Positions 5,345 through 38,260 of a stretch of DNA of 56,987 bases are shown here, piece after piece (within the stretch, counting starts at the first letter, position 1; each line of letters opens with the position of its first letter). This DNA is from a virus (Duplodnaviria > Caudoviricetes), in the IMG/VR virus record IMGVR_UViG_3300021964_000079, positions 1 to 56,987 of that record, one strand, 5' to 3'. Both the position numbers and the translations under genes were made by a program. The notes beneath the pieces are model-generated. The model saw nothing but the letters and a program-made list of their open reading frames with translations. It was not told the DNA's origin and ran no database searches.

Positions 5345-5898
5345 GATGAACTCCTTTTTGAGATCACCAAATGCGTTCTGTCAGGTCCACAGTTAACAAA
5401 ACTGTGGAGAATTGTAGTATCAACCTCATAGAGAAAACCATCAGCGGGTATATGCATTATCTCATTCAACGTAGGAAATATAAAGTAAGCATTTGGATTA
5501 GTTATAAGAGCCAGATGATAACGAGGCGCTTGGTCTTTGTGTACGGAATATGCAGTGCAAGAATTCATATGCATAATCCTAGCACGTTCACCATTTACAT
5601 CCTGTATTATGTCAGCAAAAACTGTGCCTTCATAAACTTCATTTAATACTGTATATTCTGACTGATCCTTTATGATACGGTCTTTCTTCTCACGGTGTTC
5701 ACCAGCTCCATCTGTATATGGATTAACAACAGACTTGTTACTACGTTGTATACAAGTCTGTCGCCTTTGTCCATATATACCAGTGCCTTCAAGTTCATCA
5801 TTGTCATACAGTGCATCTCCTACACGCAGCTGTATGAGTTCCCACTCAACTAGACATCTATTCATATCATAGCAGTGATTTGTTTTTCTTATTGTCAT
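5341..5898 (-). CDS. Asp/Asn beta-hydroxylase-like 2OG-Fe(II)/cupin protein
   Basis: RARIM...YSVHKD...RYHL...H.F.N.G...R.HLV (HxD...H) pattern. Confidence 0.65.
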   Translation of the reverse strand: MTIRKTNHCYDMNRCLVEWELIQLRVGDALYDNDELEGTGIYGQRRQTCIQRSNKSVVNPYTDGAGEHREKKDRIIKDQSEYTVLNEVYEGTVFADIIQDVNGERARIMHMNSCTAYSVHKDQAPRYHLALITNPNAYFIFPTLNEIMHIPADGFLYEVDTTILHSFVNCGPDRTHLVISKRSSS

Positions 5899-7892: not shown

Positions 7893-8013
7893 AGGGGGGA
7901 AACTCCTTATAAGGGGTAGATAATTATATAGGGTAGTGCAAATGAAGTGCGCTGAGGTTTAGGGGGGGGGTGTCTGAAATAAATCTAGACGAATACTTGA
8001 CTCTTAATCATCT

Positions 8014-15623: not shown

Positions 15624-15652
15624 AGTATACCATGCGAAAAGGATTCTGTCAA
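15624..15652 (-). promoter_or_regulatory. Sigma70-like early promoter
   Basis: TTGACA-17 nt-TATACT with TGG extension. Confidence 0.7.
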
Positions 15653-29181: not shown

Positions 29182-29203
29182 TTGTTTAGTCTCCCTTTAA
29201 AAG

Positions 29204-29254
29204 TTGAGGGGCTAACCGTTGGCCCCTCACGGATGTATTACGGCATCACCCGTT
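29204..29254 (-). ncRNA. Candidate two-hairpin kissing-loop RNA element
   Basis: ACGGGTG/CATCCGT and TGAGGGGC/GCCCCTCA stems; loops contain complementary GCCGT and ACGGT. Confidence 0.55.
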
Positions 29255-29277: not shown

Positions 29278-29547
29278 TCAGACACCCTGTGCAAGAGCAC
29301 GATAACCAGCAGCAATCACAGCACGGGTTGGCTTACCAATACGATACTTATTGTAAACCTTAGTCTCACCTTCAAACACACTAGTGCGTTTGTTGAGATA
29401 TACAGGATATCCCTGCATACGAAGTGAGCTCATGAGCGCTCGAACATTCTTAACGCCATATCGAGCGCTAATCTGTTTCGCAGTAAGTTCAGTACCGTTT
29501 TCGAGAGCGGCAATAACCTTAGAAGTCTTAGTCGTAGTTTTAGTCAT
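29278..29547 (-). CDS. Winged-HTH-like DNA-binding protein
   Basis: L..G..LTAKQISARYGV.N.RA..S.LR..GY.VY; start chosen at MTKTT. Confidence 0.65.
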   Translation of the reverse strand: MTKTTTKTSKVIAALENGTELTAKQISARYGVKNVRALMSSLRMQGYPVYLNKRTSVFEGETKVYNKYRIGKPTRAVIAAGYRALAQGV

Positions 29548-29588
29548 AGTATAATTCATCCTTTCAAGATGATAAGTTAGACAATATT

Positions 29589-29637
29589 TGTCAGACACAA
29601 AGTGTTTCGTTTGAATTTCACAAACTCATCAGTGACA
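29589..29637 (-). ncRNA. Type I hammerhead ribozyme
   Basis: UGUCA-CUGAUGA-GUUUG(UGAAAUU)CAAAC-GAA-ACAC(UUU)GUGU-C^UGACA: complete core and three stems. Confidence 0.9.
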
Positions 29638-29647
29638 TTATATACAG

Positions 29648-29676
29648 AGTATAACAGGTTATTATATATTTGTCAA
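29648..29676 (-). promoter_or_regulatory. Sigma70-like promoter upstream of the hammerhead
   Basis: TTGACA-17 nt-TATACT. Confidence 0.7.
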
Positions 29677-29691
29677 TACTCTTTTTGAATA

Positions 29692-29863
29692 AAGTGGTGG
29701 GTATTCTGTTGCAAGGAACCCACCGAACCCCGAAAGATTATGCTGCTAGAGCGTAATCTCCATAGTTTGCATTATCGTTTGCATTTAGAAATTTGACCAA
29801 TAACGCAGTCATCCGACAATTCTCCACTCATCTATTCCAGCCTGTCGATCCTATTTCGCCCCC
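29692..29863 (-). ncRNA. ssrA: tmRNA coding piece (permuted two-piece ssrA); tag ANDNANYGDYALAA at 29782-29738
   Basis: 5' GGGGGCGAAATAGGATCGAC; resume codon context TAAAT-GCA; tag ends in ALAA; 3' GGTGGGT..GCAACAGAA.ACCCACC motif; 3' boundary approximate. Confidence 0.92.
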
Positions 29864-29864
29864 A

Positions 29865-29999
29865 TCAAAAAGAGATTTTACCATAACCAAGTAACAAGGC
29901 TATGATACCAGAAATGAGAATAATATCAGCGCATACACTCCAAAGAATATATAACTTAAACATAAATACCGATATTTTTTTTACTAGAGGATTCTTCAT
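29865..29999 (-). CDS. 44-aa single-TM protein inside the tmRNA intervening segment
   Basis: AGGAG 6 nt before ATG; MKNPLVKKISVFMFKLYILWSVCADIILISGIIALLLGYGKISF; stop 1 nt before tmRNA G1. Confidence 0.6.
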   Translation of the reverse strand: MKNPLVKKISVFMFKLYILWSVCADIILISGIIALLLGYGKISF

Positions 30000-30040
30000 C
30001 TGAATCTCCTGATATCATCTCTTTCATGACAATCTCCTTT

Positions 30041-30104
30041 TGGTGGAGGCGGGGGGTATCGCACCCCCGTCCAGTTCTGTATTCAATTCGTATCATCAAA
30101 TTGT
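30041..30104 (-). ncRNA. ssrA: tmRNA acceptor piece (3' half of the tRNA-like domain with CCA)
   Basis: GGACGGGGGTGCGATACCCCCCGCCTCCACCA; CGCCTCC pairs with GGGGGCG giving G3-U70 and A73; 5' boundary approximate. Confidence 0.9.
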
Positions 30105-30110
30105 ATCTTA

Positions 30111-30139
30111 TATATAACACACGGGGATTAATAAGTCAA
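30111..30139 (-). promoter_or_regulatory. Sigma70-like promoter for tmRNA
   Basis: TTGACT-17 nt-TATATA. Confidence 0.55.
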
Positions 30140-30523
30140 GTGCTTTATTGGCATTCCTTTAATTTTTTTTGGTAATGAAAGTAAAGTTCCACCCACTCCC
30201 TGACTTAAAATACACGCCCACTTACCCTGTATTTCTAATACTGTGGCTGTACCCGTGGTTTCATTTATATAGGACATGACAACACTTTTCTGTTCTGCAT
30301 CTACCCAAGCGGAAATTGATTCTTCACCAAACTCTTTGACCTTATCCATAACTTCCTTTACAGGACCGCATAACACAGGTTTCTGTGTTACAATCCAATT
30401 TGGAAATTCTTTTAAATCTTGTGGTTCTGGAATTGTTTCTTGCGCTAAGGTTTGGCTACCCATTAACAGAAACACTGCCAGTACTGCTACTAGAGGTTTC
30501 ATTCTGTTTGCTCCATTCTGCAA
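30128..30523 (-). CDS. Secreted hypothetical protein (start probably MKPLV)
   Basis: Signal-peptide-like N-terminus, KPVLCG...ACIL. Confidence 0.6.
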   Translation of the reverse strand: MQNGANRMKPLVAVLAVFLLMGSQTLAQETIPEPQDLKEFPNWIVTQKPVLCGPVKEVMDKVKEFGEESISAWVDAEQKSVVMSYINETTGTATVLEIQGKWACILSQGVGGTLLSLPKKIKGMPIKHLTY

Positions 30524-38231: not shown

Positions 38232-38260
38232 AGTATAGACCAAAAATCAGGCTTTGTCAA
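38232..38260 (-). promoter_or_regulatory. Sigma70-like early promoter
   Basis: TTGACA-17 nt-TATACT. Confidence 0.7.

Follow-up and report, generated by a model that had tools for sequence, protein, structure and literature searches.

A candidate type I hammerhead ribozyme between a promoter and a small regulator gene downstream of a permuted tmRNA gene in a marine T4-like phage

The window analyzed here is the whole 56,987-nt stretch of DNA, a fragment of a virus record with an estimated completeness of 36% (CheckV). Its genes are T4-like, among them a gp59 helicase loader, a gp33-type late-transcription coactivator, and ThyX, and its source is a marine T4-like phage. On the minus strand, a permuted tmRNA gene is followed by a promoter-like site, a hammerhead motif, and a gene for a winged helix-turn-helix (HTH) protein. 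The tmRNA gene (29693 to 30143, minus strand) is of the two-piece, alphaproteobacterial type, encodes the tag ANDNANYGDYALAA, and is matched by the Rfam models alpha_tmRNA (115.1 bits) and tmRNA_permuted (116.9 bits). Its end differs by tool, as Rfam places it at 29693 and ARAGORN predicts a gene at 29647 to 30133, thus running across the promoter. Measured from the Rfam end, the tmRNA lies 16 nt upstream of the −35 element and 52 nt upstream of stem I of the hammerhead, and the ATG of the HTH gene follows 46 nt after the predicted cleavage site; the distances first proposed for this arrangement are borne out.

The HTH gene (29278 to 29547, minus strand) encodes 89 amino acids, starting at the ATG at 29547, and its product matches PF14090 HTH_39 (25.6 bits; cutoff, 21.3) as well as phrog_4973. 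The initial annotation had doubted a GTG start at 29598, inside the ribozyme, and rightly so: it is not the start, because exactly that stretch is lost or replaced in relatives while the protein begins MTK.... Homologues of the protein in cultured phages (Melnitz, Pelagibacter phage HTVC008M, and a Stenotrophomonas phage) are 33 to 38% identical. The ribozyme region itself occurs in none of the GenBank phage records, where the tmRNA of the Methylophilales phage Melnitz was the only match (4 of 50,697 records), and no cultured carrier of the hammerhead was found among the records searched. At 29196 to 29229 (minus strand), 49 nt past the HTH stop codon, lies a hairpin, UGAGGGGC-CAACGGUUA-GCCCCUCA followed by ACUUUUAAA, which is likely the terminator of the tmRNA/HTH unit; our terminator scan overlooked it because its U run consists of four U only.

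The promoter (29648 to 29676, minus strand) is of the sigma-70 type and consists of TTGACA (29676 to 29671), a 17-nt spacer, and a TG-extended TATACT (29653 to 29648), so that 11 of the 12 consensus positions match, in keeping with the near-consensus promoter originally described just ahead of the ribozyme. Both hexamers are kept across 39 distinct related sequences, and the spacer between them is fixed in length and variable in sequence. Sites of the form TTGACA-17-TATACT occur three times in the window versus 0.28 expected. The two further sites, at 15624 to 15652 and 38232 to 38260 (both minus strand), are each followed by TAGGTATAA, a short leader, a ribosome-binding site, and an ATG, and by their sequences the three promoters look like members of one early-type promoter family of the phage. 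From promoter geometry, transcription is predicted to start at A29641, the seventh base after the −10 element and the first base of stem I (Ib), with A29643 as an alternative. A scan of the interval between the tmRNA and the promoter found no terminator-like site, and read-through from the tmRNA gene is therefore plausible.

The hammerhead motif occupies positions 29581 to 29641 (minus strand) and is identified by descriptor, shuffles, and alignment. From its 5' end, it comprises the 5' strands of stem Ib (AUAA, 29641 to 29638) and stem Ia (UGUCA, 29637 to 29633); the core CUGAUGA (C3 to A9, 29626 to 29632); stem II (GUUUG/CAAAC, 29609 to 29625), which has 5 bp, a G10.1-C11.1 closing pair, and the 7-nt loop UGAAAUU; GAA (G12 A13 A14, 29608 to 29606); the stem III hairpin ACAC-UUU-GUGU (29605 to 29595) with its A15.1-U16.1 closing pair; C17 (29594), the last base of the GUC triplet (29596 to 29594); and the 3' strand of stem I, in which UGACA of stem Ia (29593 to 29589) and UUGU of stem Ib (29584 to 29581) are separated by the bulge AAUA (29588 to 29585). 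Every core position is matched (C3 U4 G5 A6 N7 G8 A9, G12 A13 A14, and a triplet whose H17 is not G), the three core helices measure 5, 5, and 4 bp with closing pairs G-C, A-U, and A-U, and the topology is that of type I, with stem I open at both ends and stems II and III capped by loops. The hammerhead consensus puts the predicted cleavage between C17 (29594) and U1.1 (29593), the same position as named in the initial annotation; self-cleavage by hammerheads yields 2',3'-cyclic phosphate and 5'-OH ends. That annotation's view of a hammerhead with an intact core and stems I to III also stands (CUGAUGA, GAAA, and GUC are all present), although the span given for it, 29589 to 29676, takes in the promoter as well and has to be redrawn to the limits above.

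Such a motif is not expected by chance. Our own type I descriptor finds exactly one site in the whole window, and none of 300 dinucleotide-preserving shuffles of the window contained a site to equal it (stems of 5, 5, and 4 bp), although two contained a site of any sort under looser settings. Hammerhead covariance models, the first check suggested for this site, gave the opposite outcome: at Rfam gathering scores, no hammerhead family is called over it. Under permissive settings, Hammerhead_3 (RF00008) reaches 27.5 bits versus a cutoff of 48.5, in the wrong topology; RAGATH-1-hammerhead (RF03152) reaches 20.1 bits versus a cutoff of 56.3; and Hammerhead_1 (RF00163) has no match at an E value of ≤10. 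We rejected the type III topology of the permissive alignment, in which the outer bases are left unpaired, because stem III is self-closed and stem I is an open helix. Of the Rfam models, RAGATH-1 aligns best over the full length with the correct topology, covering stem I, the core, GAAAC, a short stem III, and GUC, but the features of that variant are missing: whereas its consensus has an upstream hairpin with an A-rich linker and a vestigial, almost absent stem II, the RNA of the window has a normal 5-bp stem II and a −10 element in the place of the hairpin. The 5' hairpin of RAGATH-1 was rejected here, the region aligned to it being the −10 element and the hairpin not being kept in relatives. 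Energy-based folding is equivocal. For the window sequence at 37°C, the hammerhead fold has −5.1 kcal/mol versus −8.4 kcal/mol for the minimum free energy (MFE) fold (z score of 0.44), and this gap widens on cooling to 20 and 10°C. In L013, the commonest relative, the hammerhead is the MFE structure at 37°C. Thermodynamic folding, which favors the hammerhead in one sequence and not in the other, was not accepted as a decisive test either way.

Relatives are more informative. A search of viral contigs with the HTH protein returned 77 related loci, and although these were found through the protein alone, 42 of them carry a ribozyme with an intact core. The other 35 are without any ribozyme, and half-decayed or partly mutated cores are absent from the 77 loci, the ribozyme being either intact or entirely missing. 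In an alignment of 39 distinct long sequences, hardly any change falls in the ribozyme columns; variation is found in third codon positions and in the two spacers, one inside the promoter and one downstream of the ribozyme. A metagenome scan in which the stems were left free recovered 64 stretches (some probably from the same contigs as the viral collection) that reduce to 26 distinct sequences, all belonging to the same hammerhead family in the same context. The core is invariant in 26 of the 26, an outcome in favor of the ribozyme on a point, conservation of the core in relatives, that had been named in advance as a way to refute it.

In these 26 distinct sequences, 99.6% of 468 helix cells are paired, and sliding the partners by 1 to 3 columns lowers pairing to between 23 and 45% of cells. 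The third pair of stem II is U-A in 15 sequences and C-G in 11, a compensatory change with no broken instance, and the first pair of stem I is A-U in 25 and U-A in one, which is likewise compensatory. Four further pairs show one-sided changes that keep pairing, including C-G to U-G in stem III. Broken cells number zero in stems Ia, II, and III, and two unpaired cells fall in the outer stem Ib. The support that the helices draw from pairing-preserving variation is modest, amounting to two compensatory pairs, one of which comes from a single distinct sequence; there is little covariation to see in a family this conserved. All of the variation seen agrees with the predicted hammerhead fold. These comparisons leave little doubt that the ribozyme is real and that selection on it is strong.

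What occupies the slot that separates the tmRNA from the HTH gene differs from phage to phage. Besides the 42 loci with a promoter and an intact hammerhead, 16 have a promoter and a hairpin only, 6 have a tRNA-Ala(UGC) between the tmRNA and the gene (confirmed in L042), 12 have other arrangements, and 1 is truncated. In the 16 promoter-plus-hairpin loci, the whole stretch from CUGAUGA through GUC is absent. Thirteen of them have both strands of stem I joined by a short loop (CUGA in seven, AUAA in three, AUAC in two, and AAUAUC in one) into perfect stems of 8 to 9 bp, the remaining three (L002 to L004) having a shifted hairpin instead, for a total of five different hairpin versions. The differences among loops point to independent events, and the hairpin begins at the same base as the predicted +1. 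All ribozyme-bearing alleles retain a 7-nt loop II and, following the first 5 bp of stem I, a bulge of 3 to 4 nt; this bulge is missing from all 13 stem I hairpins. A tertiary contact between stems I and II is what hammerheads need for fast cleavage at low Mg2+. The distribution of the bulge would fit a need of the ribozyme, such as a contact between stem I and loop II, that is of no use without it.

On the HTH gene tree (76 rows, the distant L077 and L078 being excluded), the hammerhead label requires at least 9 changes, 5 of which are forced by well-supported branches, and one set of identical HTH genes contains both ribozyme and nonribozyme states; the slot has therefore often been exchanged or collapsed. 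That a plain hairpin has repeatedly taken the place of the ribozyme, even next to HTH genes that are identical, shows that self-cleavage is dispensable in nature. The tRNA-Ala(UGC) alleles place that gene about 10 nt past the tmRNA (1369 to 1444 in L042; also L044, L048, L049, L063, and L064), in the slot of the window's promoter and hammerhead. tmRNA is charged with alanine, which makes it suggestive that a phage should have a tRNA-Ala next to its tmRNA. Six of the 12 other arrangements (L007, L008, L022, L053, L057, and L067) have the HTH gene after the tmRNA with a short hairpin (GGAUGGAAUACCUCUAUCC type) and no promoter, and expression of the gene must therefore rely on read-through from the tmRNA.

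The leader left after the predicted cut has structure of its own. The 5' end of the predicted 3' product is self-complementary (GACAA-AUA-UUGUC, 29580 to 29592, minus strand), being the 3' strand of stem I, and farther along, a hairpin with a 7-bp stem, UCAUCUU-GAA-AGGAUGA (29556 to 29572, minus strand), encloses the Shine-Dalgarno sequence AAGGA. Folding of 29593 to 29530 gives two hairpins at −8.0 kcal/mol (z score of −2.38), a value equaled by 2 of 200 shuffles. The stem of the Shine-Dalgarno hairpin is kept in promoter-bearing relatives with loops that vary (GAA, CGAA, or UGAA), and both fold and conservation suggest that it may be a translational control element.

We consider it likely, from sequence comparisons, that the hammerhead is an active leader ribozyme, one that sets the 5' terminus of the HTH mRNA and makes this mRNA independent of upstream transcription. 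Host RNA polymerase would start at the sigma-70-type (early-type) promoter with A29641, the first stem I base, as the predicted +1, and the hammerhead, as the first 61 nt of the HTH mRNA, would fold during synthesis and cut after C29594. The released fragment, 48 nt long if +1 is 29641 (a length of about 45 nt had been put forward earlier), would carry a 5' triphosphate, the whole catalytic core, and a 2',3'-cyclic phosphate end. The HTH mRNA would be left with a 5'-OH 46 nt ahead of its ATG, where the new 5' end may self-fold into a small terminal hairpin, with the Shine-Dalgarno hairpin next. Polymerases reading through from the tmRNA gene would yield RNA that is cut at the same place, so that the HTH mRNA would have a uniform 5' end uncoupled from the tmRNA precursor. 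If the RNA is cleaved in vivo, the stability and the translation of the mRNA may be affected, and each could be raised or lowered. In RNA-library contigs (4 runs from 4 studies), none spans 29591 to 29621; runs X2 and X8 each contain one contig, from a relative with the AUAC-loop hairpin allele, that extends from the HTH gene through the hairpin and the promoter into the 3' part of the tmRNA, although these contigs may contain DNA and are no proof of a single transcript.

A broader reading, which we offer tentatively and with much less confidence than the leader ribozyme itself, is that of a natural ribozyme insulator at +1 that would erase the history of the transcript and hand over to a hairpin made from its own stem I 3' strand on a 5'-OH end. 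It would then be one of three interchangeable, often exchanged 5'-end cassettes (hammerhead, plain 5' hairpin, and a tRNA-Ala cut by host RNase P/Z) that sit between tmRNA and regulator and differ even with identical HTH genes.

Of the competing explanations, the one that fares best, though we think it unlikely, reverses the sign: the ribozyme would be a negative or conditional control, in which cutting off a 5'-triphosphate hairpin exposes the mRNA to decay or alters access to the ribosome-binding site and so lowers or times expression. A 5'-terminal hairpin is the classical stabilizing form, and the ribozyme-free alleles keep a perfect one at the same place; moreover, a conserved hairpin sequesters the Shine-Dalgarno sequence, folds that compete with the hammerhead are close to it in energy, and regulated cleavage has been raised for phage hammerheads by Perreault et al. 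(PMC3088659). Nevertheless, the sequence gives no sign of a sensor for a ligand or a protein, a hairpin can also form at the 5' end created by cleavage, and in the E. coli circuits described in PMC7536230, mRNAs cleaved by the synthetic hammerhead element RiboJ are more stable, not less.

It is improbable that the ribozyme instead serves the tmRNA, with cleavage of read-through RNA freeing the tmRNA precursor from downstream mRNA and the promoter being incidental. Circumstances that speak for this service are the end of the tmRNA 16 nt before the −35 element with no terminator-like site found between them, the promoterless relatives that must express the HTH gene by read-through, and a different type I hammerhead on an unrelated contig (L120, 4554 to 4599, minus strand), which lies about 4 nt past another permuted tmRNA with no promoter in the interval. 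Yet the cut in the window falls about 100 nt beyond the end of the tmRNA and leaves the entire ribozyme on the tmRNA side, so that no mature tmRNA end is made, and 35 of the 77 relatives are without the ribozyme, most of them with an equivalent tmRNA. The promoter, furthermore, accompanies every ribozyme-bearing allele that has enough upstream sequence, and the module of promoter, ribozyme, and gene is intact where the tmRNA is 187 nt (L033), 616 nt (L071), or 897 nt (L029) away; because the ribozyme stays with promoter and gene at such distances, trimming of the tmRNA is probably not its main role. The initial annotation had weighed two functions, and its 5'-OH mRNA end with a short released RNA fits both the anatomy and the relatives, while its trimming of tmRNA read-through, given the position of the cut and the relatives that have the same tmRNA and lack the ribozyme, could be at most a side effect. 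The nuclease resistance that it ascribed to the 5'-OH end would be a further, putative property.

Least probable is the absence of any ribozyme action, with the stem I inverted repeat serving either as a hairpin at the RNA 5' end or as an operator, in the DNA, for the HTH protein, and with the hammerhead-like insert a passenger or relic. The inverted repeat is indeed the sole element common to ribozyme-bearing and hairpin-only alleles, loss of the core is frequent, and Rfam scores stay below their thresholds. Yet point mutations would erode a relic, whereas not one core base varies among the 26 distinct sequences and the coding sequence is less conserved than the ribozyme. Changes in stems II and III preserve pairing although neither an operator nor a stem I hairpin needs these stems, the stem I bulge is kept only alongside the ribozyme, and the ribozyme would split operator half-sites by about 50 bp.

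The leader ribozyme that we favor belongs to a known ribozyme class and is placed in an unusually informative context. With the type I hammerheads of bacteria and phages (PMC3088659; RF00163), as far as these sources describe them, it shares an identical core (CUGAUGA, GAAA, A15.1-U16.1, and GUC), the G10.1-C11.1 pair closing stem II, an open stem I, capped stems II and III, and an intergenic position in a phage. It differs from RF00163 in that stem III has only 4 bp with a UUU loop and stem I is built of 5 bp, a 3- to 4-nt bulge, and 4 bp. Perreault et al. (2011; PMC3088659) reported hundreds of hammerheads in bacteria and prophages, called their function unclear, and suggested processing of long phage transcripts; most of the phage examples described there are thought to lie inside long transcripts, whereas the hammerhead of the window abuts a promoter. 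By title or abstract, we found no paper that links a hammerhead to phage tmRNA or to pelagiphages, and this family may already be listed in the supplements to Perreault et al. (2011) or to later surveys.

Among the systems compared, the closest natural precedent is the hammerhead of haloviruses HF1 and HF2 (HHphage), which, according to PMC3088659, is located 13 nt ahead of an early gene, with a mapped transcript 5' end within 3 nt of the cut. The two are alike in their location in the leader of an early phage gene, and for HHphage the transcript 5' end corresponds to the cut. HHphage is, however, an archaeal-virus variant in core and structure, 13 nt from the start codon, and the hammerhead of the window has a canonical core, a distance of 46 nt, and a promoter directly before it. 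RiboJ, a hammerhead with a hairpin placed after promoters, is described in PMC7536230 as normalizing the 5' untranslated region, uncleaved mRNA decaying faster; the order of promoter, hammerhead, hairpin, and ribosome-binding site is the same in the window, and so is the expectation of a single 5'-OH end whatever lies upstream. RiboJ is synthetic, and the resemblance is one of mode of working only, not of family. In RiboJ, the ribozyme stays on the mRNA after cleavage; the type I topology in the window would, in contrast, discard the catalytic core and leave 13 nt of stem I on the mRNA. Theta (HDV-like) ribozymes are also small, self-cleaving, and found in regions of tRNA-type genes in phages, and a tRNA-Ala fills the slot in six of our relatives, but theta ribozymes, as presented in PMC10879173, are a different class from gut phages that is tied to tRNA processing and recoding, and that of the window belongs to an mRNA leader.

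The roles of bacterial and phage hammerheads are largely obscure, and the context here is unusually readable: a ribozyme at the predicted +1 of a near-consensus promoter, followed by a defined leader and a single small gene for a regulator. Alleles with a hairpin or a tRNA in near-identical phages serve as natural controls, and the contribution of self-cleavage to an mRNA 5' end is therefore testable with respect to stability, insulation from abundant upstream RNA, and timing. The arrangement is also a natural parallel to a widely used part of synthetic biology.

Hammerheads of this kind are not confined to the family of the window. Two pattern scans of viral contigs recovered that family together with, as judged by our own descriptor, 72 other distinct type I hammerheads (loci L079 to L223), many of which are near tRNA genes and many of which have the loop II design GUGAAAUNC. 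Many of the other viral hammerheads have a stem III of 4 to 5 bp with a loop of 3 to 5 nt, and the stem II design G-NNN-G UGAAAUN C-NNN-C recurs, with stem II strands of many different sequences, in a further 41 distinct viral sequences. At 17 loci with descriptor-valid type I hammerheads, Rfam called none at those sites. Simple patterns thus found the family and 72 others where Rfam called none at the sites checked, so phage hammerheads are under-annotated.

A ribosome-binding site and the start of an open reading frame (ORF) of at least 50 amino acids lie within 60 nt after the cut in 35 of the 72, versus a mean of 12.4 (maximum, 20) over 200 trials with random positions, and part of this enrichment is trivial because the control used random rather than intergenic positions. 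A strong sigma-70-like promoter just upstream was found in one of the 72 (control mean, 0.37), and a ribozyme at +1 is therefore a trait of the window's family and not of the class. The one case is L179, in which a TTGATG-18-TATAAT promoter ends 7 nt before stem I of a hammerhead near 7978 to 8005 (minus strand), possibly a second ribozyme at +1 to judge by this spacing. After the hammerhead of L120, about 480 nt on the same strand are without an ORF of at least 50 amino acids. In two of the 17 loci put to Rfam, it called ribozymes elsewhere, a RAGATH-1 hammerhead at 5600 to 5672 of L150 (73.2 bits) and a pistol ribozyme at 2217 to 2290 of L159 (64.8 bits); each lies within 1 to 2 kb of a hammerhead found by pattern, and several self-cleaving ribozymes are therefore close together there.
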